Shown here in pieces: positions 1 to 15,389 of a stretch of DNA of 64,000 nt. The stretch comes from Lachnospiraceae bacterium (GTDB taxonomy: Bacteria > Bacillota > Clostridia > Lachnospirales > Lachnospiraceae), in the NCBI GenBank assembly GCA_017550165.1, contig JAFZQH010000030.1, forward strand, positions 77,798 through 141,797. Direction: 5' to 3'. Each line of letters starts with the position of its first letter. Within the stretch, counting starts at the first letter, position 1. Made by a program: the position numbers and the translations under genes. Under the pieces are notes generated by a model. The model did no database searches, was not told the origin of the DNA, and saw only the letters and a program-made list of their open reading frames with translations.

Positions 1-512
1 GGAGTCCCGGGCTGATCATGTTCCACCGGCACATAAGCGGTGATCCCTCTGGCGGGGTTTACTCCCGGGCGGGCCTCCTCTGCCCAGAACCCTTGCGGAA
101 GTATGGAACCGTAGCCAAGGATGGCAATCTTAGTTCCTTCCACATCTATAACCGGATACTGCCGGGCGATCTCTTCATTTTCCCCTGCCCCTGTAAGATA
201 GATACCTGCATCCCTGATTGTCTTAAGGGTATCCTTAAAGGCAGTACGACCGTAGTCCAGGGCGTGATTGGATGCAAATGACAGAACGTCAAATCCCGCA
301 TCCTTTATGGCATCTATACATTCAGGCCTTGATGAACATCCCATTCTTGTACAGCTGGAAAGTTCAAGATTATCCGACAGAACAGACTCCAACTGTCCGA
401 ACACCAGATCTGCCTTGTTGAAATAGTCCCTGACATTGACAAAGTATTCAAAAAAATCATCTCTGTAGAGACCTATATCGCCGGTGGCAAGGAAAGTCAG
501 TTTATCTTTCAT
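1..512 (-). CDS. CapA-family (poly-gamma-glutamate/capsule-synthesis-like metallophosphatase) protein. The N-terminal part is present and the 3' end runs off the window.
   Basis: Not in the ORF track because there is no stop in the window. Manual translation from ATG 512-510 gives MKDKLTFLATGDIGLYRDDFFEYFVNVRDYFNKADLVFGQLESVLSDN...DAGFDVLSFASNHALDYGRTA. This fits the CapA pattern (ADLvfGnLE, aNNHalDyG). Confidence 0.6.
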   Translation of the reverse strand, partial: MKDKLTFLATGDIGLYRDDFFEYFVNVRDYFNKADLVFGQLESVLSDNLELSSCTRMGCSSRPECIDAIKDAGFDVLSFASNHALDYGRTAFKDTLKTIRDAGIYLTGAGENEEIARQYPVIDVEGTKIAILGYGSILPQGFWAEEARPGVNPARGITAYVPVEHDQPGT

Positions 513-628: not shown

Positions 629-1759
629 TTACTTAAGGAACAGCTTGGTCTTTTCCATGTTATCCTTAAACATCTTCATAACGTAATCGCCTGTCCAGCT
701 CTTATCCCAGTACCTTGAGCTTCCACCCTGAGCACGTTGTCTCATGTAGTATGACTTCTCATCTGTGGACTTCTCAACATCCTGAAGACCGTCGATGCAA
801 GCCTTGATCTGAGCAACTACATCATCAGGAGTTGATGCCGGAACTACCATAAATGAAGCGTTGGGAAGGTTGTACTTCTCTGCATCCTTTTCGCCGAATA
901 CATCAACAAGTGTGGGAACCTTCTTGATTATCTCGAGATTCTTATCATCCGGTGCATAGTCACTGTAATCTTTGTTAGGTCTTACATTCAATACAGCCTT
1001 AACCTTGTTGCTGGAATCAGCAAGGTAAGAAGCAGCCTTACTCTCTTCGAACATTACGATGTCGATGGTATCACCGAGAAGAGCAGAAGCTGAATCTGCT
1101 GAGCTGGTGGGTGACCAGATAACATCATCCTGTAAGCCTCTCTGATAGAACAGAGCCTTTACCTTGGAATCCATAACCTTACCGGGGATATCCATTACTG
1201 TTACAGCTGCCTTATCACCATTCTTTGCGGAATGCTCTTTGATGTACTTCTCAAGCTCATCCCATGTGTTGTAAGGTGAATTCTCCTGTGTAAGAAGCAT
1301 ACATCCGGTCATGGGGTTAGGCTGGATAAATCCGCCTACTGCTTTAAACTTGCTTGTGTCTGTCGGGTCTACGGTCCAGATACCCTGGATGTAATTACTG
1401 ATATTGTTGTTACCGAAGAGCATCATTGTAAGGCCCTTATCATCCTTGGACTCTGCAAGCTTGTTAGCTAAGTTAGCTCCGCCGCCGGCCTTGTCGATCT
1501 CGATAGTAACCTTCTTACCTGTCTTCTCTGACAGCCAATCCTTGAGTACTACAAGGTTTGCGTCTGTCTGTGATCCGGCTTCATAACCGGAGTAGATGGT
1601 GATGTCTCCGCTGGGCCATGATCCTCCTGCTGCAGCACTGCTGCCACCTGCAGCGGAACCTGAAGCTGCTTTGGATGAAGCGGCTCCACCACCGCCTCCA
1701 CAGGCAGTAAGTCCTAATGCCAGAACCGCGGATAATAGTATCGCATTCACTTTTTTCAT
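629..1759 (-). CDS. tctC: Tripartite tricarboxylate transporter (TTT) substrate-binding lipoprotein, TctC/Bug family.
   Basis: Start moved to ATG 1759 (MKKVNAILLSAVLALGLTACGG lipobox) with GGAGGAG RBS. Gly/Ser/Ala linker followed by a Bug-like domain. Lies directly downstream of tctA/tctB. Confidence 0.75.
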   Translation of the reverse strand: MKKVNAILLSAVLALGLTACGGGGGAASSKAASGSAAGGSSAAAGGSWPSGDITIYSGYEAGSQTDANLVVLKDWLSEKTGKKVTIEIDKAGGGANLANKLAESKDDKGLTMMLFGNNNISNYIQGIWTVDPTDTSKFKAVGGFIQPNPMTGCMLLTQENSPYNTWDELEKYIKEHSAKNGDKAAVTVMDIPGKVMDSKVKALFYQRGLQDDVIWSPTSSADSASALLGDTIDIVMFEESKAASYLADSSNKVKAVLNVRPNKDYSDYAPDDKNLEIIKKVPTLVDVFGEKDAEKYNLPNASFMVVPASTPDDVVAQIKACIDGLQDVEKSTDEKSYYMRQRAQGGSSRYWDKSWTGDYVMKMFKDNMEKTKLFLK

Positions 1760-1856
1760 GTTAAATCTCCTCCCTAGGTAGTTTTTCTTTTTTTTTCTGT
1801 ATATTAATCCTGTAAAAGTACAGAATTGATATCGTTTGATCTTATAGCCTGTCCGC

Positions 1857-3371
1857 CTACTCACCTGCAGCATTCTCCTTGGCTGCGGCCCTTCTCTTCT
1901 TTATGACCGGGCTTATAAGTCCGTAGAGCAGGACTAATGTTCCGGCTACAATGAAGATGCAGGATATGGGCCTGGTAAAGAAATCCATCCATCCGGTTGC
2001 AGAGCCTGCAAATCCTCTTCTGGTATACATCTCCAGCTGGGGCGTAAGTATAAAGGCCATCAGGAAGGGCAGACTTGATATTCCGAACATATCCATCAGT
2101 ACACCCAGAATACAGCTTATCAATGTAACAAAAAGACCGAAGAAGCTCATGGTTGCCATGTATCCGCCCGTAAGAGCAAGTATCACGATAATACTGTAGA
2201 GATAGTGATACGGGATCTTAAGCAGGGCCGGGAATGTGGGCATACCAATAGTTTCGTATAGGAAAACCACAATTCCGGCTAAAAGCGCTGCAATAAATAT
2301 GGTGTAAACTACGACCGGATTCTCCCTGATAAGCATAGGGCTTGCTGTTATTCCCTTGGATCCCAGCGCGGTAATAAACTGAACACAGGATGCATCTCCC
2401 GGTATACCGAGGGCGATCAGGGGGATAAGCGCACCGCCGATAGCAGCGTTATTGGCCGTCTCTGATGCGATAACGCCCATGATCTCGCCATGGCCCCATG
2501 TGGATTTATCCTTGGCAAGGATATTCTCGGTGGAATAAGCCATGATAGAAGCAACCGGTCCGCCAAGTCCCGGAAGGAAACCGATAAAGAGTCCCATAAA
2601 CCAGGAACGTATAAATCCCACAAAATTGTGGGCCAGATCCTTGCCGGGGAATCTGTATCGTCCAACCTTGATCTTTTCGCTGGATTTTGCTTTTTCATGT
2701 CTTGCATATTCAAGCATGATGATCTTGGAGGCAAATAAACCAAGCATGATGTTGATGATGTTGAGTCCGCCAAGGAAAGCAACATTCCCTCCGAAGAGGA
2801 AACGGCCACGGGCAGTGATCGGGTCCGTACCGATAGTTGCAAGGAAAATTGCAAGGCCAACGCCCAGCAGGTTCTTTGCAAGGTTTCCTTTTGACAGGCC
2901 TACAACCATAAGTATCGCACAGTAGCAGAGTGCCGCATATTCCCAGGACCCTAAAGTAACTGCCCATCTTGCGATAAAGTTACATGCAACGGTAGCAATA
3001 AGTACGGAAGGAATGGTTCCGAGAAAGTTGGATGTAACAGCTGCAGATAACGCCCTAACTGGATCACCTTGTTTGGTAAATTCGTAGCCATCGGTTACGG
3101 TGGTCATGGAAGATGCTGTTCCCGGAATACCCAGAAGGATAGATCCGATACAGCCTCCGCTCATTCCTCCTATTACGATGGAAATAAAAAGCGCCATGCA
3201 CATATTAACATCCATCTTGTATGCAATAGGAAGGAGAACTACCAGCAGTGTGCTGCTTCCCAGTCCGGGTATGGCCCCGAGGATAACGCCGGCAAGTGCA
3301 CCTGCTATTATAAACAACAGTCCCGGAAAGGTAAAGCATTCCTGAAGAACCTGAATAATAATGTCACCCAT
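1857..3371 (-). CDS. tctA: TTT large permease, TctA family.
   Basis: 504-aa polytopic membrane protein. The N-terminus (LLFIIAGALAGVILGAIPGLGSST) and the repeated GIPG/GLPG motifs are typical of TctA. Confidence 0.8.
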   Translation of the reverse strand: MGDIIIQVLQECFTFPGLLFIIAGALAGVILGAIPGLGSSTLLVVLLPIAYKMDVNMCMALFISIVIGGMSGGCIGSILLGIPGTASSMTTVTDGYEFTKQGDPVRALSAAVTSNFLGTIPSVLIATVACNFIARWAVTLGSWEYAALCYCAILMVVGLSKGNLAKNLLGVGLAIFLATIGTDPITARGRFLFGGNVAFLGGLNIINIMLGLFASKIIMLEYARHEKAKSSEKIKVGRYRFPGKDLAHNFVGFIRSWFMGLFIGFLPGLGGPVASIMAYSTENILAKDKSTWGHGEIMGVIASETANNAAIGGALIPLIALGIPGDASCVQFITALGSKGITASPMLIRENPVVVYTIFIAALLAGIVVFLYETIGMPTFPALLKIPYHYLYSIIVILALTGGYMATMSFFGLFVTLISCILGVLMDMFGISSLPFLMAFILTPQLEMYTRRGFAGSATGWMDFFTRPISCIFIVAGTLVLLYGLISPVIKKRRAAAKENAAGE

Positions 3372-3386
3372 CTTTGTCCAACCCCC

Positions 3387-3866
3387 TTATCCGAACAGCA
3401 GCCCTGTGGGCAGATCAGCCTGCAGGCCGATAACATATATGACATAAATTGCCGCACCGGCGATCACGGCATATATGAGACTCCTGATAACCCTTTTCTT
3501 CATGGGATCGTCAGGACGGCTCTGGCCCTGGAACAAAAGAGTGATTATGAACAGGACGACCGGAACGGCGATCATAAATCCCACCAGCCAGAATAAGATC
3601 ACACAAAGACAATAAACTCCGAAAATAATACCGGCGGATTTCCACTGTTCTTTGGTCAAAAACTGCTTTGATTCTTTGCCCGGCTTAATGATAAGGGCCA
3701 GTCCGCAGATAAGCATGATGGCTGCACCTATGAGGGGAAAGAGCCTTGAACCCGGGTCACCCCTTTTCTCAACTACCTGCAGCGCCATGGTCTGCATCAC
3801 TATCCATAAAGAAATAAGAACTGAAGCTATACCAAGGATCCTGTCCTTTTGATTCTGGATTTTCAT
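3387..3866 (-). CDS. tctB: TTT small permease, TctB family.
   Basis: 159 aa with four hydrophobic segments. Positioned immediately upstream of tctA (15-nt gap), as in tctCBA/tctBAC loci. Confidence 0.65.
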   Translation of the reverse strand: MKIQNQKDRILGIASVLISLWIVMQTMALQVVEKRGDPGSRLFPLIGAAIMLICGLALIIKPGKESKQFLTKEQWKSAGIIFGVYCLCVILFWLVGFMIAVPVVLFIITLLFQGQSRPDDPMKKRVIRSLIYAVIAGAAIYVIYVIGLQADLPTGLLFG

Positions 3867-3948
3867 ACTTCACCTTCCTATCTGTTAATATAATAATTAC
3901 CTCTTAAATTATGCATCATTTCATAAAATAATTCAATGTATTAAAAAT

Positions 3949-6360
3949 TTATAACTCCTGCGACATACGCTCGATAACCTCATCCTGGATACCGGGAGTA
4001 AGCCTCGTAAAATAGGCGCTGTAGCCGGCAACACGAACGATAAGCTCGGGATGTTCTTCCGGATGCTCCTTGGCATCGAGCATCTCTTCCTTATCCACTA
4101 CGTTAAACTGGATGTGCTTAGCTCCGTTAACCAGGAAGGTCTTGATAACGCCCGCCAGTTTGGCCAGGTCCTCGTCATTCTTCAATGCCGAGGGATGGAA
4201 CTTCATGTTCATCAGGGTTCCCTGATAAGGATCATGGTTAACCTTCATGGCACTCTTGAATACTGCCAGCGGACCGTTAACATCCGTTCCGTGGTCCGGT
4301 GAAAGGGATGCATCCGCTAAGATCTCTCCGCCCTTACGTCCGTCAGGAGTAGCTCCCGTAACTGCGCCGCCCGGCTGATGAGCCGAGATGGAAATGGCGT
4401 TGGGCTGTATCGTCCCGCCGTATACACAGGGGAAACTCTTGCAGATCTCTGCATATCTCTTATATACATCCGCTACAAAAGCGTCGACTTCTTCATTATC
4501 ATTACCGTACTTGGGCTGTGCCTTAAAGTCAGCCTGCATATCCTCGAAACCGACCCAGTCGGCATCCAGGGCTTCCATGAGCTGTGCCATGGTGTATTTC
4601 TTCTCCTCGAAAATGAGCTTCTTTATGGCATATAATCCGTTACCGGTATTAACGGCACCGACGGCACCCAGAACAGCGCCATTTTCAAATTCGAAACGTC
4701 TGGAGAACATATCCTTGCCCACCTTGACTCCGTCCTGCATAAGGCTCGAACGGAATACGTCCGGGAAAAGCTCCTTCTCCGCGATCATCTCAACATTCTC
4801 GCGCTCGGCAGCCATTCTCATAAGGTATCTGATCTCGTCATAGACAGCAGCCTCTACCTCATCGAAGGTCTTCATCTCCTTAACGTCGCCCACCTTCTTG
4901 CCCACCATCTCTTTGGTGTAACGGCAGTATCCGTCATGGAGGGCAATGTCCATGGCATGGGGGATGATAAAGAATGCTGCGACCTGAGTTCTGGTCTTGG
5001 CCTGGACATTACCGTCTACGCAGCCTGTACAGCACCAGTCTCTGGCGTCTTCAATGCTGAGACAGTTCTCACCGCTCTCCTTGGTAAAGAAATTAATGAA
5101 ACTCTCATCTCCCACAAATGCAGGCATGCCGATGCCGGTACGAACACATTCCAGAGCCTTCTTAAGCAAGGGTTCCGGTGTTCCCTTGTGGACACGTAAT
5201 GTAAGCGTATGGTGGGGAACATGCGTCTCTATGGCTGCGTCCAGAAGCAGGTATGTAAGATCGTTGGTAGCATCATTACCCTGTCTGTCAACTCCGCCGA
5301 TGGTCCAGTTGTACCACTTGGCCATTCCGGCATTCTTGGCTCTGTTAGCCTTGCCTGATACACGGTTAAGCTTCATGTTCTTGATGCGGAGGATCTCTAA
5401 GAGCTCAAGCACTTCGTCCTTGGTGATCCTGCCTTCTTCAATATCCTTCTTGTAGAAGGGATACATATACTGGTCAAAACGTCCTGCTGTGGAAACCGGG
5501 CTGGGGCATACCATAAGGAAGGTAAACCAGAATGCCTGCAGCGCTTCTCTAAAGGTCTCTGCAGGTTCATACGGAACCTTACGGCAGATCCTTGCCATCT
5601 CCGTAAGTTCAGCTTTACGCTTCCCGTCCTTTTCCTCTCCTGCCAGCTTCTCGCACAGGTCAGCGTATCTGTTGGCGAAACGCACCCATGCCTCAAATAC
5701 TATAACAACACCCTCCCAGAAGTTTCTCTTCTCGATGATGTCGGGTTCTTCGTAATAAATGTTCTTCAGGCATTCCTTTGCCTCATTGATGATGCTCTTA
5801 GCTCCTTCGTTAAGGATCTTTGCATAATCAACCGCAACAAGGCAGAATCCCGGCCCCAGGCCATATCCGCTCATGGCAAATCCGCCGCCTGAGCCGCCGG
5901 TCTTGTCCTTCCAGGGAGGAAGGATAACTCCGGACTTCATAAAGGGCCACAATCTCTCGTTCTCACCCAAAGATTTGCCCATCTCCTGAACGAGATTGCT
6001 GTTAGCCGTATTGCCGGCAAATCTTTCGTTGAGACGATACAGTTCTTCTTCGTCTTCCGGGGTGATGGTATATATCTCACTCTTAAGACTCTCTACCTCG
6101 TCCTTGGTCCATACTCCGTATTCATACTGCATCTCAAGTCCGAAAGGCTTGGATGCGCCGGAGCCGCAGAGAAGATCCTCAGGCTCCACAAAAATGGTGA
6201 TATTATCGAGAATGTTGGCGTGAAGCTTAGAACGGCGCAGGATAGTCGGTTCTCCCGCCGTCTGCTCCAGAGACTCATTCGCCAGTCTGAAAAGCTCGAC
6301 GCAAAGGGGGTATTTGCTGATGCGCAGGGCATCCTTCATACGTTGTACTCTTTCGGTCAT
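3949..6360 (-). CDS. Glycyl-radical enzyme of the PFL2/glycerol-dehydratase-like class; substrate unknown.
   Basis: 803 aa. C-terminal glycyl-radical motif ELIVRVAGYSAYFTRL (Gly779, codon 4024-4026). Cys loop WCCTGCVDGN (Cys447, codon 5020-5022). GGGAGGTG RBS upstream of ATG 6360. Confidence 0.9.
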   Translation of the reverse strand: MTERVQRMKDALRISKYPLCVELFRLANESLEQTAGEPTILRRSKLHANILDNITIFVEPEDLLCGSGASKPFGLEMQYEYGVWTKDEVESLKSEIYTITPEDEEELYRLNERFAGNTANSNLVQEMGKSLGENERLWPFMKSGVILPPWKDKTGGSGGGFAMSGYGLGPGFCLVAVDYAKILNEGAKSIINEAKECLKNIYYEEPDIIEKRNFWEGVVIVFEAWVRFANRYADLCEKLAGEEKDGKRKAELTEMARICRKVPYEPAETFREALQAFWFTFLMVCPSPVSTAGRFDQYMYPFYKKDIEEGRITKDEVLELLEILRIKNMKLNRVSGKANRAKNAGMAKWYNWTIGGVDRQGNDATNDLTYLLLDAAIETHVPHHTLTLRVHKGTPEPLLKKALECVRTGIGMPAFVGDESFINFFTKESGENCLSIEDARDWCCTGCVDGNVQAKTRTQVAAFFIIPHAMDIALHDGYCRYTKEMVGKKVGDVKEMKTFDEVEAAVYDEIRYLMRMAAERENVEMIAEKELFPDVFRSSLMQDGVKVGKDMFSRRFEFENGAVLGAVGAVNTGNGLYAIKKLIFEEKKYTMAQLMEALDADWVGFEDMQADFKAQPKYGNDNEEVDAFVADVYKRYAEICKSFPCVYGGTIQPNAISISAHQPGGAVTGATPDGRKGGEILADASLSPDHGTDVNGPLAVFKSAMKVNHDPYQGTLMNMKFHPSALKNDEDLAKLAGVIKTFLVNGAKHIQFNVVDKEEMLDAKEHPEEHPELIVRVAGYSAYFTRLTPGIQDEVIERMSQEL

Positions 6361-6630
6361 AAACGTACACCTCCCAATTCTCTAATAATACGCAAACCGT
6401 TATCGTTACTGCCTTTCACGACATCTTAAAACTATCATACCGGCATGACCTTTTCAACAAATGGGCCGATTGTAAAACCATATGTATTTCCCATGCACAA
6501 ATCCCGGCCTATTTTTTGTTGCTCATGCACATGTGCAAATGAAAGTGGCGATTTTTGTGGATTATCGCGGGTTTTTTACTGATAATATATTATGATATCC
6601 TTATTGAGATTACAGAATTGAGGTGTTTTG

Positions 6631-7575
6631 ATGGCAGAGAATTTCCTTACCGATGACGAGATAAAAGAACTTAGAAAAGTGAAAGGGACCATTTTCAATA
6701 TCCAGCATTACTGCATCCATGACGGCCCGGGGGTCCGGACCAATGTGTTCGTCAAGGGCTGCCCCCTGCGCTGCATATGGTGCGCTAATCCCGAGTCACA
6801 GATCACCACTCCCCAGCTTATGTACCGTTCGGATAAGTGCGTGGGCTGTGGCGCCTGTGTGGAGGCCTGTCCCCGCAAGGCCGTTACCATGGTGGACGGC
6901 AAAAGTTCTACGGACCGCGCCCTTTGCGAAGGATGCGGCAAATGCGTCAAGGTCTGCAAGCCTGAAGCCCGGGAGATCATGGGCTATTCCATTACTGCGG
7001 GAGAAGCCTTTGATAAGGTGGCAAAAGAGAAGATATTCTACGGTGATGACGGAGGACTGACTGTGACCGGCGGAGAAGCTCTGGCTCATCCCGAGTTCAC
7101 CCTGGCCCTTCTGAAACTATGCAAGAACGACGGCATCGGCACTGCCATAGAGACCTGCGGCCATGCTAAATGGGATATAGTAAAGCGGGTCCTCGCATTC
7201 TGTGATACCGTGCTTTTCGACATAAAGGAAACCGACAGCAGGAAACATGAGGAGTTTACCTGTGTCGGCAATGAACTGATCCTTGAGAATCTCGAGAGGA
7301 TCAATAATGAGCTGGACTGCGCCATATGGGTCCGTGTTCCCACTATCCCCGGCTATAATGCAGACGAGGAGAACATCCGCCGGATAGGCGAGTTAGTATC
7401 ATCCAGGATCACCAGATGCAGCCGGGTGGACCTGCTGCCCTTCCACAACCTGGGAGAGTCCAAGGCAGAGCAGCTGGACCGTGACATGAACGGTTTCCAC
7501 AGCGAAGTACCCTCCAAGGAATTCATGGACAACTTAAAGGAGATCATCCGCGGTTTCGGACTGAACTGCCCGTAA
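6631..7575 (+). CDS. Glycyl-radical enzyme activating enzyme (radical SAM).
   Basis: DGPGVRTNVFVKGCPLRCIWCANPE contains the CxxxCxxC motif. Two ferredoxin-like clusters are present (CVGCGACVEACP, CEGCGKCVKVC), as in PFL2-class activases. ATG 6631 is preceded by GAGGTG. The track start at 6628 is a TTG. Confidence 0.9.
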   Translation: MAENFLTDDEIKELRKVKGTIFNIQHYCIHDGPGVRTNVFVKGCPLRCIWCANPESQITTPQLMYRSDKCVGCGACVEACPRKAVTMVDGKSSTDRALCEGCGKCVKVCKPEAREIMGYSITAGEAFDKVAKEKIFYGDDGGLTVTGGEALAHPEFTLALLKLCKNDGIGTAIETCGHAKWDIVKRVLAFCDTVLFDIKETDSRKHEEFTCVGNELILENLERINNELDCAIWVRVPTIPGYNADEENIRRIGELVSSRITRCSRVDLLPFHNLGESKAEQLDRDMNGFHSEVPSKEFMDNLKEIIRGFGLNCP

Positions 7576-7586
7576 TCACTTACTTT

Positions 7587-10500
7587 CTATTTGTTTATAT
7601 CCGTAAGATTAAAATTCTTTATCCGCCTCATTGCTATCAGAGCATTTACCAATGCAAGGAAGGCTGCCACAACTACTCCGAAAGCGATGGCAGGCCAGCT
7701 TATGCCGGAATAGAAATGTGATGGCAGATATGAAAATACCCTGAGGTTAAAGGAAGCAGCCGCCGAGCCCAGGATGGCCCCCAGGATTATACCCACTGCG
7801 GTCAAAAAGATGGTATCCTTGTATACATACTTCTTTGCATCCTTCACGGAATACCCGTTTATCATCAGGATGATCATTTCCCTCTTCTTCTCCTCCACAT
7901 GCATTACAAGCAGATTAAGGAGCACCAGGAAAGCCATAATGACCGCAAGGGCCACAGCCACAAGGGAAATGATGGTCATCGCCGAACTCATGGCCTTAAA
8001 TGCCGTCATATTGGCATCAAGATAGTCATAAAGGGTTATAAAGCCCGGAATCTCAGACAGCTTTGCGGACAGTCTCTCCCTGTCAATACCCTCCATTTCA
8101 AGTGTAAATGAATTGGCTCGATAATCAGCTTTTGAATACTTTTCATAAGTGTCTGCCGGCATGACCATTATGATCCTTGGCAGATATGACTCAAATTCAC
8201 CGATATAAGGGATAAAGAAATGCTGTCCCGTGTTGTCGATAAATTCAATCTTGTCTCCGGGATCAATGTCGTAGGTATCGGCATATCCGTTACATACCCT
8301 TGTCCCATCGGCCAGTTCCTTGAAATGTCCTTTATCGTTTTTTAACAGAAAGCTCTCAGTGAACCTGTCATCATCAGTTACATACAGATAGCAGATATTA
8401 ACACGTCCGTCCGGGAGCACTGTCCTCATGTAGTTGGAAGAGAATGTTGAGGATGCGATATTCTCCGAATCCAACACAGCCCGGATCTTATCTTTGCATC
8501 CCTCCTCCTTGTCATCAAAAAGAATAAGCGCATCAAACTTATTAAGCTCATTAAACTCGATCACAGGGCTTCTGTCTGCATCAAGCTTGATAGCCATTCC
8601 GCACACAAGCATGGCCGTACATCCCGTGATCCCGATAAGGGTTCCCAGGACACGGCGTTTATCCGTAAAAAGGTTGTTGAACATGGTCTTTGAAAATAAA
8701 GAAAGCCTGCCCCATAACTTCGTCCGTTCGAAGCCGTGATTCTTTCCGCTGGGAGGCTGTGGGCCCGCTAAGAGCTTCACCGGATCCTGCTTTAAGATGG
8801 ATCTGCAAGCCGTAAATGTGGACAGCAAAATGATCGCCAGCTCGATGCCGCAGATCATCAGCGCATCCGTTAATGAAAAATATAACACCAAATTCCTGAA
8901 TACATAATTCTTTCCAATGGTGATCAATACAATGGGCTGGATAACTATATACCCTGCCAGGACTCCAAGGGCCGACCCGACGATGGATGCAAGCGCCCCG
9001 TAGAAGAGGTATGATCTTGTAATCTCCCCTTTATTGAGTCCCAGCGCCTTTTTGGTTCCCAGGAGCTTAATGTGGGAATATACTATCCTTGAAAGGGCGG
9101 AATAACATACCAGTATACCCACGATCAGGAACAAGGATGCGAGAGAAAATTTAACACGGCTTAATATCTCTTTGAAAGTCAATCCGGAAGCATTTGAAGG
9201 ATTATTCTCTCTTGTAAGTATCGCAGATGAATAATCCTTAAGGTTCGAGGTAGCCACCCTAAGCTGCCTTGCCGATGAACTCTCAAGAAGTTCCTTTGCC
9301 TTATCTATCTTATCCTGATACTCGCCTATCTTCTTCTTTCCGTCATCGATCTGCGCCTGGCCGGAATTGATCTGCGCCTGGCCGGAAAGAAGCTGTGCCT
9401 GGCTTTCTTCTGCCTTTTGAATAGCTTCATCCAGACTCTCATATAATTCATCGATATAATCCTCTGCCTGGGCCATGATGGTATCTTTCATGTTAAGGGC
9501 GGATCTGATCCTTGAGATAAGATCCGGCAGTTTCTTTGCCAGGCTCTTATAGTCTTTCGCCCCGGTGGCATTAAGTAATCTCGTCTTAAAGTCGTCATAT
9601 TCTTTGGCAAGATTTTGATAGCGCTCTGCCATGATATCATTTCCCAGGAGGGCATAAAATCCCGAAACCATCATGATATAAGACGGGATATTGTCGACGA
9701 TGGCGCTGAACTTATATTCTTCCATAAGCTCTTCGAGCTCCTCCGGCGAACCTACCAGCTTCTGCAACTTCGCCAGATTCTCCTTGGCATCGGGGAACAA
9801 TTCATCCAGCTTATCCTTATATGACTCAAACTGTTCCACACGATCTTCAACCTGGCTTTTTGCATTCTCAAGCATATTCCTTCCGGAATCCAGCATTTCC
9901 CTTCCTCTTTCCAGCTGGGTCCTGCTCTCACTTATCAGTTTTTCGTTCAGCTCTATGGTCTGGTTACCCTGGTCAAGCTGCCTCTGATAGTCTTCAATCT
10001 GTTCGGGAGCATTATCAAGATTATTTTTAAGAGTATTGGCTATATTAAGGATCTTTTCGTTCTTTGCTGCCGTAAGCTCCTTTACCACAACGTTGACACG
10101 GTCTTTGAAAACATCGGTTTCCCTTGCTATGCCTTCATCCGCGTAAAGGCCGTTGATATAGTCGCTTTTTACATAAACATTGCTGTATCCCGTAAAGCTC
10201 CTTGCATCAAAGCCATCAATGGGGATAAAGATTATGCATTCAACAGGTGTTCCGAGAGTTGCCGACGTCCCGTATGTCTCTGAAAATGTGCTGATGAATT
10301 CCGGAGATTCAGCCAATCCGGAAACGGTAAACGAATCGTGCTTTAAAGCCTGCATTCCGTCCGTATCCTTCGGCTCGTCATTAAGAGCCTTAAGGAGGGC
10401 TTCCATGTCCGAAAGCTTGTCCTGATTCTCAAGAAGGATTGCCAAAGCATGGGGGTGTTCATTAGCATCATGCTTAAAGGTAGTGGTATCCCCCACCTTG

Positions 10501-10925
10501 ACATCATGCTTCTCTGCCCAGTTACGTTCAACTATCACCTCATCTGACCTTGCGGGCAGATTGCCCTCCAGGTTAAAGAGGGAATTAATCTTATCCGGAA
10601 CGGTGCATATCCTTGCCTGATATTTGACGTCACCCAGGTTAAAATATCCGTAGTAGTTGTAGGTTCCTTCAACTTCAGCCACCCCATCGATCCTGCGGAT
10701 CTGTTCGATATCCTCACTTGTAAGCCCATAAGGGGATATTATCTCCAGATCCCGGAAATTATCCAGATCCTGCTCCGTCTGAAAGATCATGGTAAGAGCT
10801 GTACCTGCCCATCCCATGCCCAAAAATATCGCTACACCAAGGGCAACGAACAGGGTGATGGAGAAAAAAGATACAAATGTGCCTTTTATTGTTCTGATCA
10901 TGTCAATGATCTGTGTTTTATTCAT
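7587..10925 (-). CDS. ABC transporter permease with duplicated FtsX/MacB-type domains and a very large extracytoplasmic coiled-coil domain.
   Basis: 1112 aa. Hydrophobic segments are arranged 1+3 / 1+3. The first loop is about 550 aa and has a heptad-rich stretch (LDQGNQTIELNEKLISESRTQLERGREMLDSGR...QAQINSGQAQIDDGKKKI). The gene is 12 nt downstream of the ATPase gene. Confidence 0.75.
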   Translation of the reverse strand: MNKTQIIDMIRTIKGTFVSFFSITLFVALGVAIFLGMGWAGTALTMIFQTEQDLDNFRDLEIISPYGLTSEDIEQIRRIDGVAEVEGTYNYYGYFNLGDVKYQARICTVPDKINSLFNLEGNLPARSDEVIVERNWAEKHDVKVGDTTTFKHDANEHPHALAILLENQDKLSDMEALLKALNDEPKDTDGMQALKHDSFTVSGLAESPEFISTFSETYGTSATLGTPVECIIFIPIDGFDARSFTGYSNVYVKSDYINGLYADEGIARETDVFKDRVNVVVKELTAAKNEKILNIANTLKNNLDNAPEQIEDYQRQLDQGNQTIELNEKLISESRTQLERGREMLDSGRNMLENAKSQVEDRVEQFESYKDKLDELFPDAKENLAKLQKLVGSPEELEELMEEYKFSAIVDNIPSYIMMVSGFYALLGNDIMAERYQNLAKEYDDFKTRLLNATGAKDYKSLAKKLPDLISRIRSALNMKDTIMAQAEDYIDELYESLDEAIQKAEESQAQLLSGQAQINSGQAQIDDGKKKIGEYQDKIDKAKELLESSSARQLRVATSNLKDYSSAILTRENNPSNASGLTFKEILSRVKFSLASLFLIVGILVCYSALSRIVYSHIKLLGTKKALGLNKGEITRSYLFYGALASIVGSALGVLAGYIVIQPIVLITIGKNYVFRNLVLYFSLTDALMICGIELAIILLSTFTACRSILKQDPVKLLAGPQPPSGKNHGFERTKLWGRLSLFSKTMFNNLFTDKRRVLGTLIGITGCTAMLVCGMAIKLDADRSPVIEFNELNKFDALILFDDKEEGCKDKIRAVLDSENIASSTFSSNYMRTVLPDGRVNICYLYVTDDDRFTESFLLKNDKGHFKELADGTRVCNGYADTYDIDPGDKIEFIDNTGQHFFIPYIGEFESYLPRIIMVMPADTYEKYSKADYRANSFTLEMEGIDRERLSAKLSEIPGFITLYDYLDANMTAFKAMSSAMTIISLVAVALAVIMAFLVLLNLLVMHVEEKKREMIILMINGYSVKDAKKYVYKDTIFLTAVGIILGAILGSAAASFNLRVFSYLPSHFYSGISWPAIAFGVVVAAFLALVNALIAMRRIKNFNLTDINK

Positions 10926-10937
10926 ATCTGACCACCC

Positions 10938-12158
10938 TTACCATACAAGATCCGTTGCTTTTGCAGGTTTATGATTAACAGTTACCTCATAAAGTTTCCC
11001 GTCGCGGAAACGGATCACACGGTTAGCCATACGGGTGATCTCCTCATTGTGGGTTACCATGATAAGTGTGGTCCCCCGTTCTACTACCTGCTCAAAGGCC
11101 TGCAGCACCTCTATGCTGGTGGTATAATCAAGTGCCGCCGTAGGCTCGTCTGCAAGGATCAGCCTGGGTCTCTTCACCAGAGCCCTTGCAATGGATATAC
11201 GTTGTTGCTGCCCACCCGACATCTGGGAAGGATAATTGGCCTGTTTCTCTTTCATATGCACCAGGTCGAGAGCCTCTAAGGGGTCCATGGCATTATCCAC
11301 CAGCTCCGCTATAAGCTCTAAGTTCTGCTTGGCATTGAGATTAGGCATAAGGTTATAACTCTGGAAGACAAAGCCTATATTATCCCGTCTGTATTGGGTG
11401 AGTTCATCCGTGTTTGCATTGGACATATCCTTTCCCATAAAGGAAAATGTTCCGCTTGTGGCCTTATCCATTCCGCCGATTATGTTAAGCACAGTGGATT
11501 TGCCGCATCCGGACTCACCTAAAAGGGCAAGGAATTCGCCCTCGAATACATCAAAATTAACCCCCTTTAATACCTTGGTGATTATATCTCCGTTTTTATA
11601 CTCTCTGGTAACATTACGTACCGAGAGTATGGTCTTCCTGTCGGACCAGTTCTCGGGCGGCAGGGCCGATTCATTGATGGCCAGCTCTGTCATGACAGCC
11701 AGGAGCTGGCATACATCTGCATCATCCTCTGAAAAATAACCGGTCTCAACAGTCTTTATAAACTCTATGCAGCCGATATGCCTGGTATCATTTGAAAAAG
11801 GGACGCAGCAAAGGGAGGATACATTTATCCCCTCAAGATCCTTTTCCGTAACCGGCTCCGGAGTCTCCTGAAAATTAATGATGGTAACGGGAGACTGTTT
11901 CGCAAAAGCCTGTCCTACTGCCCCGATCCCCGGCGCATAACTGACAGAAGAAAGATCCAGCGGACAGATCCAGTAGTAGGGATGAAGTTTGGAATTATCT
12001 TTCGGGTCTGAATACCACATCACCGCATGATCTGCCGCAGAGCTTTCAAGGATGACCTGTAAGCCAACCTTCAGGGCTTCATCCAGTGTCGAGACCTTTG
12101 ATATAGCCTGCTGAACCTTTCCTATGATCTTGTAATACTTCATGGCGTTGTTATCCAT
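10938..12158 (-). CDS. ABC transporter ATP-binding protein with an N-terminal GAF-like domain.
   Basis: The C-terminal half carries Walker A GESGCGKST, signature MSGGQQQRISIA and Walker B LILADEPTAALD (MacB/LolD-like). The N-terminal ~170 aa has a GAF-like pattern (LDEALKVGLQVILESSAADHAVMWY...GIGAVGQAF...SSLCCVPF). AAGGTGG RBS. Confidence 0.8.
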   Translation of the reverse strand: MDNNAMKYYKIIGKVQQAISKVSTLDEALKVGLQVILESSAADHAVMWYSDPKDNSKLHPYYWICPLDLSSVSYAPGIGAVGQAFAKQSPVTIINFQETPEPVTEKDLEGINVSSLCCVPFSNDTRHIGCIEFIKTVETGYFSEDDADVCQLLAVMTELAINESALPPENWSDRKTILSVRNVTREYKNGDIITKVLKGVNFDVFEGEFLALLGESGCGKSTVLNIIGGMDKATSGTFSFMGKDMSNANTDELTQYRRDNIGFVFQSYNLMPNLNAKQNLELIAELVDNAMDPLEALDLVHMKEKQANYPSQMSGGQQQRISIARALVKRPRLILADEPTAALDYTTSIEVLQAFEQVVERGTTLIMVTHNEEITRMANRVIRFRDGKLYEVTVNHKPAKATDLVW

Positions 12159-12186
12159 AATTGTCCACCTTTTTATGCATTATTAT

Positions 12187-15186
12187 TTAACGAACACGGA
12201 TCCTTTTTGCACCGGTAAGGATCCCCTCGTATATAATGCCCTTGTAATTCTTATAGGGTCTTGAACGGACGTAGTAATACTTTTTGGATCTCAGATCCTT
12301 GACCTTGAGCTTGGTCTTGCCCGATCCTTTGGTGGACAGAATGACCTTATTGGCAAGGTCTTTGCCGGTTCCGTACATGAACTGATATCCCGATGCTTTT
12401 CTTACTTTAACCACTTTGACCGTAAATGCTTTCTTTGAAGCCGTAAGTGACTGGGCGGTACGGGCAAAAAACTTATAGCTGACGGGACTCCATGCACCTT
12501 TTACTTCCTTTGTTCCGTTCCTGTACACAGCCATGACCCTGAACTCGTACAATCCATTGGCCTTCAGTTTTTTCACAGTGTAGCTGTTCTTGCCCTTCGT
12601 TGACTTTGTGGTCCACTTCTTTCCGGCCTCACGATATGCGATCATATAATCAGTAGCATCCTCTGCCTTGGCCCAGCTTAATTTTATCGATCTGCTGCTG
12701 TAATACTCAGTCATTTTTACTTTGGATACATTCAAAGCATACTCAGGGTCTTCCCAGGGTGTATCCTGAGCCTTCATCCATGCCACATACAGTTCATTGT
12801 AATGTGCGCAGGGAACCTTGCCCGGCATCTGTGACATAAGAGTTGAGATCATTCTTATATTGTCTTTTACACTGAATGACCTGTCTTTTTCATATAACAA
12901 CAGCTCCATCAGTATTTGACGAAGATCCGCAGCATGATCCTTTAATGTGTCGCAATGCCTGATGACATCCTGATAGAATACGCTTCCCTTATCGTAAAAT
13001 CCCGAAGAAAGGATTGCCTGTTTTCCCTTTTCGATCACATTCTTAAGATAACCGTCAGCCGCATCATCTACCGTATTATACTTCTTAATTATATCTCCCT
13101 TGTTATCGGGATCCGTCTCCACCGTCAGGTACTTTATGAATTCCGCCAGAAATGCGGCCGCCTTATTATGGCCATCATAACTGCCTCCCGAATCTTTTCC
13201 GATGGAATCCAGAATACCGCTGAATTCTCCCGATCCCATAAACATTCCTATCATATTGTAGAGCATTATCCTGTTGGATTTGGCATTAACCGGGTCCGGA
13301 ACGGTCTTGGATCCTCCGTCACCATATGCGCATTTTACAAGCATGCTGAATACGAAGTTGCCCACAGCTTCTTTATTGTGGTCTGAATCCATGGCCTGGC
13401 TTGAATCAAAATCCGGGATGATAAGGCCGACCATGCTCTTGTATGTATCCGGTATGGCACCTATAAGCTTGGTAGAAACAGCATTAAAGGCTTCCTCCGC
13501 AGCCTTGGATCTGAACTTCAGTTTCTTTACCTTGATCTTCTGGTCATCATATTGCTGAGCAGGAGAATTGGGAACCACTTCCACTTCATATTGTTCAGCG
13601 TTGTCGACCAGATACTGGCAGAATATCTCAAAGAAGTCATCCACCGTCATGGTGCCTCGTTCAATATCCTTTCCGGTTATGAATTCCACCAGCTGCTCCA
13701 CCGTTACGGCAATGGCATCATCGTCTGAAAGACCCGGATCCTCAGCCTGAAGTTCCTTCTTGGCATAACTCAGATAACAGAAAAGACCGGTCTTGATGGC
13801 ACTCAGCTTATCCTTTTGTACACCCTCGATAAACGGGCCTATCCCCATGCCGTATATTCCGGCCAGAGACTGCAGCGTCTCCTGATAGCCTGCGCCTACA
13901 TAGGTATCTACATCTGAGGCACGACGGGCCAGGCCTTCATTGATCCTCTGGTAAAACAGTTTTGCCTGAGATGTGGCTCCGACGGTCTTTGTCGCTTCAG
14001 GATCGTCCACGAAGGAAAGGGTTGCAAGATCAAAGGTCTTCCATGTAAAGATGTCCTCATCACCTGCACCGCCGTTTTGAGTATATTGCTTGTATGCAAA
14101 GGGAGCAAACTTATTAAGCTCCTCCTTCATCCTGTTTTTCGTCTCGGCCTTCCCGTCACTGATGGGAAGTTCAACGCCGTACCGGTCATATCCCCATTTG
14201 CTCGGTGGCAGAAGGGTGATAATGTCGTAGCCCGGGGCGCAGTTCTTGATGCACCTGTAGACACCTGTGTGGGGTTGAATTATCTCACCGGCATCAGCGC
14301 CTGAATAGGTATATGCCGCTCCCTGAGAATCGTTCTTGTATCTGCTGTCCCGGCCCCCGCGATAACCTGCGACACTCAGAGCATCTTTTTTCGTAAGGTA
14401 TCCCGTTCGGATATTTCCCGGTGTTGCAAATGAGTAGCAGTATACGTTCTCTGCATCGATATTTACTCCATTGAAATAATCACCGCCACCCTCGGCAAAG
14501 AATCCCCCCAGAAGGTTGGTAACAGCGCCGCCTCTGCTGTGGCCGGTGATCCATACCTTAAGGTCTCCCGTGATATTTTTGCTCGAAATATAATCCTTTA
14601 CAAACCGTAAAATCTCATCCCTTGCTTCTTTAAAGCCCTGATGGATCCCACCTTTACCCACGGTAAAGTTGCCGACCCACTCCTGCTTATAGTTGGCGCT
14701 TCTGGGCAGCACTGCAAGAAGGGTGTAGGTTTTATTGCCCACTGTGATCTTTTTACGGGCAACTGCACATCCCACGGAATTCTCTTCTTTTTCAAGGGAG
14801 TAATACTTATTGGTCTCTATGTCGGAGAATCCGAGATCGCCAAGCAGTGCCTTGATATTATTGCTGTTGCTCGCGTGATCTCTCTCCTTGCTGTCAGTAT
14901 AGTAGCTGGCCGTGGCCATGGCAGTCTGTGCCGAAAGGGTCGCAAGATGGCGATCCACATCATAGGCTGACCCGGTAAATAATCTGTCGCTATAGGTAAA
15001 GGAGTCCCTCCCCTGGAGATTACACAGGGAGTTCTCGTTTGAAGTGAAGGTGTAGGTCCCCGTAACCGCCTCCGCCTTAGTACTGTCAATAGCAGCATAA
15101 AGCGGCGCGGGAGATGCTCCGAACATCACCGCAGCTGCAAGCACAAGACTGAAAATCCTGTTTATAATCCTTTTTGGTCTTATCAT
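12187..15186 (-). CDS. Secreted class-3 lipase / alpha-beta hydrolase with C-terminal fibronectin-III-like repeats.
   Basis: Start set at ATG 15186 (MIRPKRIINRIFSLVLAAAVMFGASPAPLYA signal peptide). Nucleophile elbow VWITGHSRGGAVTNLLG. Two C-terminal beta-rich repeats of about 90 aa (SIKLSWAKAEDATDYMIAYRE.. / FTVKVVKVRKASGYQFMYG..). Confidence 0.7.
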   Translation of the reverse strand: MIRPKRIINRIFSLVLAAAVMFGASPAPLYAAIDSTKAEAVTGTYTFTSNENSLCNLQGRDSFTYSDRLFTGSAYDVDRHLATLSAQTAMATASYYTDSKERDHASNSNNIKALLGDLGFSDIETNKYYSLEKEENSVGCAVARKKITVGNKTYTLLAVLPRSANYKQEWVGNFTVGKGGIHQGFKEARDEILRFVKDYISSKNITGDLKVWITGHSRGGAVTNLLGGFFAEGGGDYFNGVNIDAENVYCYSFATPGNIRTGYLTKKDALSVAGYRGGRDSRYKNDSQGAAYTYSGADAGEIIQPHTGVYRCIKNCAPGYDIITLLPPSKWGYDRYGVELPISDGKAETKNRMKEELNKFAPFAYKQYTQNGGAGDEDIFTWKTFDLATLSFVDDPEATKTVGATSQAKLFYQRINEGLARRASDVDTYVGAGYQETLQSLAGIYGMGIGPFIEGVQKDKLSAIKTGLFCYLSYAKKELQAEDPGLSDDDAIAVTVEQLVEFITGKDIERGTMTVDDFFEIFCQYLVDNAEQYEVEVVPNSPAQQYDDQKIKVKKLKFRSKAAEEAFNAVSTKLIGAIPDTYKSMVGLIIPDFDSSQAMDSDHNKEAVGNFVFSMLVKCAYGDGGSKTVPDPVNAKSNRIMLYNMIGMFMGSGEFSGILDSIGKDSGGSYDGHNKAAAFLAEFIKYLTVETDPDNKGDIIKKYNTVDDAADGYLKNVIEKGKQAILSSGFYDKGSVFYQDVIRHCDTLKDHAADLRQILMELLLYEKDRSFSVKDNIRMISTLMSQMPGKVPCAHYNELYVAWMKAQDTPWEDPEYALNVSKVKMTEYYSSRSIKLSWAKAEDATDYMIAYREAGKKWTTKSTKGKNSYTVKKLKANGLYEFRVMAVYRNGTKEVKGAWSPVSYKFFARTAQSLTASKKAFTVKVVKVRKASGYQFMYGTGKDLANKVILSTKGSGKTKLKVKDLRSKKYYYVRSRPYKNYKGIIYEGILTGAKRIRVR

Positions 15187-15389
15187 ATTTTTATCACTCC
15201 CCACGAACCTGATATAGGCCAATTGTACCATAAATACCCGGGGCCCTCAAGAAATTATGAGATATCGTTTCAGAACGAAACACAATATTCAGAAAATAGA
15301 TTCTTGCAAAAGGTCAAAATTGCGTAATGAGGGCATTCTGTGATATAATCACCGATATAGTTTATCATATCGTTCTTAAGGAGAAAAAC

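Follow-up and report, generated by a model that had tools for sequence, protein, structure and literature searches.

The window analysed here, a 64,000-nucleotide stretch of a Lachnospiraceae genome, carries between positions 629 and 7575 the genes for a glycyl-radical enzyme (GRE), for a tripartite tricarboxylate transporter (TTT) and for a divergently oriented activase. The enzyme belongs to a superclade of GREs in which aspartate occupies the second position after the catalytic cysteine (Cys-x-Asp), and this superclade has a specific, modular gene neighbourhood concerned with organic acids. The reading favoured here, held at a confidence just short of even, is that the locus is a regulated catabolic module in which the GRE eliminates a group from an imported hydroxy-(poly)carboxylate by radical chemistry, Asp449 serving as the base. 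The original prediction of an uncharacterised GRE tied to a TTT system has thus been recast as a statement about the superclade as a whole.

The GRE gene (3949-6360, minus strand) encodes 803 residues that comprise a PFL-like barrel (Pfam, 6e-151) and a Gly_radical domain (2e-29), and a radical SAM activase is encoded nearby, as befits a member of the superfamily. The site of the glycyl radical, read from the motif RVAGYSAYF, is Gly779 (codon 4024-4026, minus strand), and it lies 332 residues from Cys447 in TGCVDG; the features first noted in this protein are borne out, and the spacing is identical to that of CutC. The Cys loop, C447-V-D449-G-N451, spans positions 5008-5022 on the minus strand, with the codons of Cys447 and Asp449 at 5020-5022 and 5014-5016. 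HMMER alignments with CutC, glycerol dehydratase, propanediol dehydratase and arylacetate decarboxylase place Cys447, which is invariant across all relatives, on the catalytic cysteine and Asp449 on the Cys+2 position, such that the pair corresponds to C489/E491 of CutC and to C433/E435 of glycerol dehydratase. Asp449 therefore aligns, as had been proposed, with the general-base Glu.

It is evident that the enzyme is uncharacterised, in agreement with the original prediction. Its best match among PDB sequences is the glycerol dehydratase of Clostridium butyricum (8e-137), followed by CutC, propanediol dehydratase and arylacetate decarboxylase. An AlphaFold2 model (pLDDT 91.7, pTM 0.92) superposes in Foldseek on every solved GRE with a TM-score of about 0.9, reaching 0.91-0.93 for glycerol dehydratase, and the identities by fold search are 34% to glycerol dehydratase, 32% to arylacetate decarboxylase, 30-31% to propanediol dehydratase (including PDB entry 9RCO), 29% to CutC and 26% to HypD. 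Membership of a characterised GRE family can be ruled out, given that no NCBIfam equivalog cut-off is approached and that identity to solved GREs is at most 34%. The entry 9RCO was also rejected as a close, newly solved relative, being a propanediol dehydratase with GCVEP. Close relatives are named in public databases only as 'pyruvate formate lyase family protein' or 'hypothetical', and targeted literature searches, together with a June 2026 review (PMC13450708), returned nothing on a Cys-x-Asp GRE clade and, apart from papers on sulfonates, no GRE with PucR, PrpD or TTT partners.

When one genome of each GTDB species was scanned, 221 relatives of this GRE came to light, and the locus counts given below cover the best 80 of these 221, which share 66-95% identity with the enzyme of the window. 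They are drawn from Lachnospiraceae, Oscillospiraceae, Eggerthellaceae, Coriobacteriaceae, Anaerovoracaceae, Spirochaetia, Fusibacter, Acidaminobacter and Youngiibacter, and originate in digesters and in the guts of humans, mice, ruminants, horses and chickens; cultured hosts from the human or mouse gut include Clostridium sp. AF32-12BH, Hominifimenecus microfluidus and Murimonas intestini. Of about 80 orthologues, only two depart from the motif TGCVDGN, having GCVDAN instead, and RVAGYSAYF is present in almost all. When 1.84 billion cluster representatives were searched exhaustively, 12 of the 16 clusters (at 50% identity) that lie nearest read GC[VIL]D, and beyond about E = 1e-138 there followed a plateau of generic GREs, mostly Cys-x-Glu, with many other residues at Cys+2 too. 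Since Asp holds throughout the clade and the residue varies within the plateau, Asp can be regarded as a signature of the clade. The departure from Glu at Cys+2, to which the original prediction drew attention, is unusual against characterised eliminases and isomerases but not against GRE sequence space as a whole, where uncharacterised members commonly have other residues there.

Further signatures accompany the aspartate. A clade-specific Gly-rich insertion of residues ~150-176 (WKDKTGGSGGGFAMSGYGLGPGFCLVA; 5833-5913, minus strand), recognised in an alignment of GRE clusters, is shared by types A (to which the enzyme of the window belongs), B and C and by other Cys-x-Asp clusters, is gapped in Cys-x-Glu GREs, and sits where glycerol dehydratase has the substrate-binding loop that bears His164. 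Arg340, Lys342, Trp349, Asn451, Arg457 and His661 are conserved across the superclade, and none of them in other GREs. Paralogues with 43-51% identity and the motif GCLDLN or GCLDAN often occupy the same loci, and in islands of two to three paralogous Cys-x-Asp GREs (GCVDGN, GCLDLN and GCLDAN; loci L007, L021, L032, L064, L070, L090, L093 and L101) one activase is held in common and each GRE has a separate PucR-type regulator. A metagenome scan with divergent Cys-x-Asp sequences, in which generic Gly-loop patterns left only about 19 of 80 loci informative, revealed environmental Cys-x-Asp GREs in tandem that adjoin PGA_cap, PrpD, MFS, TRAP, GntR/FCD and phosphotriesterase-family (lactonase-like) genes.

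The neighbourhood of these enzymes, counted by family HMM searches over the 80 species loci, includes the activase in 54, a PucR-type regulator in 46, a CitMHS/MatC-type carrier in 32, PGA_cap in 16, a CocE/NonD plus BD-FAE esterase in 14, URO-D-like and CoA-transferase genes in 12 each, a PrpD-like gene in nine and TctA in six. In 62 control loci of other GREs (771 kb) that came out of the metagenome scan, the activase was found in 46 and PucR, CitMHS, TTT, PGA_cap and PrpD in none. Among the metagenome loci, PGA_cap also adjoins a Cys-x-Asp GRE in 3 of 18. GRE plus tctABC is not the conserved unit among the relatives: with six TTT loci against 32 for CitMHS/MatC, TTT is a minority solution, and these counts replace the pairing of GRE with TTT by one of GRE with any anion carrier. 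Five carriers, TTT, CitMHS/MatC, MFS, TRAP DctP and Opp-type, replace one another at Cys-x-Asp GREs, such that import of an organic acid emerges as the constant theme; the proposal that the substrate is an imported organic anion is strengthened by this exchange and remains the best reading. Four features are constant: the Cys+2 residue of the GRE is acidic, an importer for anions is present whatever its type, there is a dedicated regulator, and a fixed downstream enzyme is lacking. The variable ones are putative epimerases, esterases or lactonases.

In the window the transporter genes follow the GRE gene on the minus strand in the order tctB, tctA and the gene of a binding lipoprotein, with gaps of 82, 15 and 97 nt, as first described. 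TctB, the small membrane subunit (159 aa, 3387-3866), and TctA, the large membrane subunit (504 aa, 1857-3371), are recognised by Pfam as PF07331 (6.5e-17) and PF01970 (2.5e-105), the two families that define the membrane part of a TTT. The binding protein (376 aa, 629-1759) carries the lipobox LTAC, and a Gly/Ser/Ala-rich linker directly follows the lipobox Cys in the mature protein; its start is the ATG at 1759, which stands behind the ribosome-binding site GGGAGGAG. The open reading frame called by the program (629-1873) has 38 codons too many at its start and runs into tctA. The set is closed by an intrinsic terminator at 581-612 on the minus strand (a hairpin of -29.5 kcal/mol, z = -7.85, with a T-run behind it), also as predicted.

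The assignment of the binding protein as 'tctC' fared less simply, as its own sequence finds no match in Pfam, NCBIfam or PDB sequences. Its family is tiny, with 14 clusters in a collection of 5.8 billion proteins, and about half of its relatives (45-57% identity) match PF03401, among them relatives at 54-57%. In an AlphaFold2 model (pLDDT 80.6), the top 17 Foldseek matches are all TTT binding proteins (E from 1e-14 to 1e-12) and the next ones are weaker by at least four orders of magnitude. The neighbours in fold include malate-bound MatC (6HKE), BugD, Bug27, 2DVZ, TphC, a terephthalate-binding protein and oxoadipate-bound AdpC, and those with a ligand hold malate, terephthalate or oxoadipate. 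It follows from these relatives and from the predicted fold, and from these only, that the protein is a real, highly divergent TctC; it differs from the solved Bug/TctC proteins in having at most 18% identity to them, in being missed by Pfam and in being a lipoprotein of a Gram-positive host.

Given that the TTT is rare at these loci, the GRE and tctBAC could be neighbours by chance, with the transporter serving another pathway and the substrate of the GRE entering the cell otherwise. The count of six in 80 species is consistent with such an incidental adjacency, as are weak promoter-like matches inside the 82-nt and 97-nt gaps, and co-transcription of GRE and tctBAC is inferred from gene layout only. 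However, the gaps are short and no terminator was found in those separating GRE, tctB, tctA and tctC; TTT genes, absent from all the control loci, are joined to this module again, in differing orders, in no fewer than five further genomes of distant taxa; and the four other members of the tiny binding-protein family among the loci fetched (L024, L039, L062 and L065) all lie within a tctBAC set that adjoins a GRE. The recurrence extends to further genes, since two Blautia metagenome-assembled genomes (MAGs) have a URO-D-like gene, GRE, PrpD, PGA_cap and TctBAC, a Clostridiales MAG has GRE, PGA_cap and TctBAC, a Spirochaetia MAG has TctBAC, PrpD, PGA_cap and GRE, and an Anaerovoracaceae MAG has TctBAC and GRE. 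The set of GRE, PrpD-like, PGA_cap and TctBAC genes hence recurs in Blautia, Spirochaetia and Clostridiales with varying gene order, and a chance adjacency in the window is considered quite improbable.

The same partners are present at the locus of the window. Locus L004 is a longer copy of the contig, in which window position x corresponds to 16361 - x, and there the terminator is followed by three more genes, for PGA_cap, a PrpD-like protein and a PucR-type regulator, which the original prediction did not see because they lie beyond position 1 of the window. Only the 5' part of the PGA_cap gene (1-512, minus strand; Pfam PGA_cap, 5e-64), equal to its first 170 codons, falls within the window, and the full gene lies at L004 15849-16985. 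The closest matches of the PrpD-like protein are iminodisuccinate epimerase (2e-34) and cis-aconitate decarboxylase (2e-30), and 2-methylcitrate dehydratase is distant (5e-9); all three enzymes act on polycarboxylates. The PGA_cap protein is an MslH-like metallo-enzyme that retains, as judged by eye, the GD, E, NHxxD, HxxxH and HH motifs of its fold. Its sole solved or curated relative in PDB and NCBIfam is MslH, a Ca-dependent epimerase that acts at the alpha-carbon of a C-terminal residue (PMC10406935). Also recurring nearby are esterase- or lactonase-like proteins, namely CocE/NonD plus BD-FAE, a carboxylesterase, an 'Esterase', a beta-lactamase-fold protein and a phosphotriesterase-family protein. 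Directly beside the GRE, 12 species loci (for instance L062 2596-3711, L065 8821-9894, L064, L068 and L070) encode a protein of some 360 residues whose only match, weak and partial (E ~1e-6), is URO-D or MtaA-CmuA methyltransferase-like. As stated in the original prediction for the vicinity of the GRE, no aldehyde dehydrogenase, bacterial microcompartment shell or sulfite-handling family is seen among the recurrent annotated neighbours in the 80 loci, smaller clusters having been left unannotated, and no dedicated downstream enzyme figures among the annotated families found repeatedly across loci.

From these observations we infer the type of reaction and the roles of Asp449 and of the partner enzymes as follows. 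The TctC-like lipoprotein would capture a carboxylate outside the cell and TctAB would import it. The activase would place a radical on Gly779, from where it would move to Cys447, and the thiyl radical would abstract hydrogen from a substrate carbon that bears a hydroxyl group. Asp449, which stands where Glu is usual, would accept the hydroxyl proton as the neighbouring group departs, as water or possibly as an amine or a ring bond, and the product would be a keto-acid that could enter central metabolism directly. The PrpD-like protein, the MslH-like PGA_cap and the esterases or lactonases probably turn stereoisomers, esters and lactones into the isomer that the GRE accepts, and related isomers would fall to the paralogous Cys-x-Asp GREs, which have one PucR apiece. 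Elimination is favoured since the closest solved relatives by sequence and fold, glycerol dehydratase, propanediol dehydratase and CutC, are 1,2-eliminases, and since the Gly and Cys loops are intact, a cognate activase is present and the Cys+2 residue is invariably acidic. Import of a carboxylate is favoured by the five interchangeable anion carriers, by the malate, terephthalate and oxoadipate bound to structural neighbours of the binding protein, and by Arg340, Lys342, Arg457 and His661, conserved in this clade only, together with the Gly-rich insertion. Taken with the constant and variable features of the neighbourhood, the simplest reading is that a single radical step turns the imported hydroxy-(poly)carboxylate into a keto-acid of central metabolism.

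Comparison with the known eliminases bears on this reading. Glycerol dehydratase (1R8W/1R9D) and propanediol dehydratase (5I2A, 9RCO), the best matches in sequence and fold, share with the enzyme of the window the Cys-to-Gly architecture, an acidic Cys+2 residue and an activase class with two auxiliary cluster motifs. They differ in having Glu at Cys+2 where Asp is found here, glycerol dehydratase has its His-bearing loop in place of the Gly-rich insertion of about 17 residues, and the anion transporters found here come without microcompartment or aldehyde-handling genes. CutC (5FAU, 5A0U; TM 0.91) has trimethylammonium-binding residues that are unconserved here, and no cut-type microcompartment accompanies the present GRE. 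A likeness in organisation is offered by HypD, HplG, HpyG and HpzG, paralogous GREs that act on stereoisomers of one carboxylate-bearing substrate and that recall the islands of up to three GREs described above; these enzymes are all Cys-x-Glu, with 26-29% identity, and the analogy is organisational only.

Several points weigh against a radical elimination on a hydroxy-(poly)carboxylate. Radical chemistry is not usually needed to dehydrate hydroxy-acids whose alpha-hydrogen is activated. The polar residues His164, Ser282 and Asp447 of glycerol dehydratase, which bind the diol, correspond here to Leu174, a Val (in CPSPVSTAG) and Val460, and the Arg/Gln/Arg sulfonate triad of the C-S lyases corresponds to Leu174, Asp178 and Ile656; pocket residues were placed by hand through alignments, and the mapping of the triad and, owing to the insertion in that region, of His164 is approximate. 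With hydrophobic residues at most of these sites, the core of the pocket would be rather hydrophobic for a polycarboxylate. The PrpD-like and PGA_cap partners are found in only about 10-20% of orthologous loci. Moreover, a June 2026 review that catalogues all characterised GREs states that every eliminase and isomerase retains Cys-x-Glu (PMC13450708), the motif in which Glu forms a hydrogen bond with the substrate hydroxyl and takes up its proton, whereas the motif here is Cys-Val-Asp, fixed in the clade. Finally, the activity is a prediction from sequence: tartrate isomers, hydroxycitrate or isocitrate, 3-hydroxyaspartate, quinate and aconitate or itaconate were considered as substrates and none could be supported, and carnitine is disfavoured by the type of transporter.

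The hydrophobic pocket would suit the main rival, on which the GRE would decarboxylate an imported (poly)carboxylic acid by a radical route. The thiyl radical would activate or oxidise the substrate beside its carboxylate, CO2 would leave and Asp449 would relay a proton to Cys447, in the manner proposed for Glu505 of 4-hydroxyphenylacetate decarboxylase (HPAD). The evidence on this side also counts against an elimination: arylacetate decarboxylase (7E7L) is the top PDB match for the Cys-loop segment and likewise has a residue other than Glu (Leu) at Cys+2, and the NCBIfam model of indoleacetate decarboxylase (2e-141) scores about as high as the best eliminase models. A decarboxylase would not require downstream enzymes, the URO-D-like gene that adjoins the GRE in 12 loci has, by its weak match, a decarboxylase/methyltransferase fold, and three kinds of gene characteristic of aromatic-acid fermentation, those for enoate reductase, 2-hydroxyacyl-CoA dehydratase and CoA-transferase, are each present in 6 to 12 of the 80 loci. 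However, eliminases rank first by full-length similarity and fold, with similarity to decarboxylases no higher than to eliminases, and no small Fe-S subunit of the HPAD type is seen among the recurrent neighbours. The known GRE decarboxylases use membrane-permeant arylacetates and are not known to be linked to di- or tricarboxylate-type carriers, and the epimerase- and esterase-like partners would better suit stereochemically complex hydroxy-acids. A decarboxylase is thus regarded as unlikely, though it is the alternative to be taken most seriously.

The other anionic substrates suggested at the outset were sulfonates. By analogy with isethionate sulfite-lyase and HpsG, the GRE could be a C-S lyase that cleaves a carboxy-sulfonate such as sulfolactate, a dianion imported by the TTT, to sulfite and pyruvate. 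The NCBIfam model of HpsG is the second-best family match (1e-143, far under its cut-off), TTT systems are reported in the literature alongside sulfonate-degrading GRE pathways, a TTT importer for sulfolactate has been described, and pyruvate requires no dedicated downstream enzyme. Yet the sulfonate triad of all three solved C-S lyases is missing on the approximate mapping given above, which disfavours sulfolactate, no sulfite reductase or exporter family recurs among the annotated families of the 80 loci, and the hosts are fermentative Firmicutes rather than sulfite respirers. Sulfonates are therefore unlikely as the substrate class, and a C-S lyase is the least probable of the explanations weighed here.

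The probability that is left goes to a chemistry not yet seen in GREs. A bolder proposal, rather unlikely at present, is that the Cys-x-Asp GREs run a reaction type new to the superfamily on aliphatic hydroxy-, amino- and poly-carboxylic acids of plant or host origin. Such a reaction may be a radical dehydration or a ring or lactone opening of a hydroxy-tricarboxylate or cyclic polyol acid, or a Kolbe-type decarboxylation of a polycarboxylate. Were this so, gut and digester communities would prove to have a previously unrecognised anaerobic pathway for organic acids, with dedicated PrpD-like and MslH-like epimerases.

GREs lie behind major reactions of the gut, including the formation of trimethylamine from choline, of H2S from sulfonates, of p-cresol and of skatole, and the use of hydroxyproline. 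Entire clades of these enzymes remain without function according to the 2026 review (PMC13450708). The Cys-x-Asp clade is common and widely distributed (221 GTDB species), with a catalytic motif of its own and a gene neighbourhood that has been reassembled repeatedly. Its function is directly testable, given that cultured hosts exist and that the binding protein, which is soluble, could report its ligand, which would in turn give the substrate of the GRE. Solving it would add imported carboxylic acids to the substrate classes of GREs, show whether Asp can stand in for the 'essential' Glu, and assign first roles to the cytosolic PGA_cap and PrpD-like proteins of anaerobes.

The activase gene (6631-7575, plus strand; 314 aa; TIGR02494, 9e-97) most probably starts at the ATG at 6631 rather than at the TTG at 6628. 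The protein has a CX3CX2C motif at residue 44 and CX2CX2CX3C motifs at residues 70 and 99, as in activases with a ferredoxin-like insert; the two extra Fe-S clusters that had been singled out are thus supported by motifs, though they are the normal make-up of activases of non-PFL GREs and not a special feature. The divergent promoter region between the two genes (6361-6630) contains TGCACA at 6494-6499 and the perfect palindrome TGCACATGTGCA at 6526-6537. Upstream of the GRE, at least two copies of TGCACA/TGTGCA are found in 14 of 76 orthologous loci, often 23 bp apart (binomial p ~1e-13 against an expectation of uniform base composition), and the 8-mer most widely shared upstream of orthologous GREs is AAATGTGC. 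These repeats may be the operator of the PucR-type regulator.

Two 'conserved' neighbour clusters of 360 and 465 residues were discarded as artefacts, being antisense open reading frames of the activase and CitMHS genes. Long antisense frames (up to 877 aa) lie over GRE, activase and CitMHS genes in L029, L026, L032, L033 and other high-GC relatives, where GC-rich coding sequence gives rise to spurious families of conserved frames.

Beyond the activase (7587-15231, minus strand), the window encodes a 1112-aa FtsX/MacB-type permease, a 406-aa protein that joins a GAF domain to an ABC ATPase, an unusual fusion, and a 1014-aa protein with Lipase_3 and fibronectin-III domains (annotated from L004), all of which appear unrelated to the GRE module. 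The metagenome scan also brought to light a separate group of GREs in which the Gly loop reads RL[HEK]G[YF]H[VI]Q[YF] in place of RVAGYSA.F and the Cys loop GCVETAV (L105, L107-L109, L112-L114, L116, L119, L120, L122-L124, L127, L130, L131, L140 and L154), several of the contigs being labelled as human gut metagenome.

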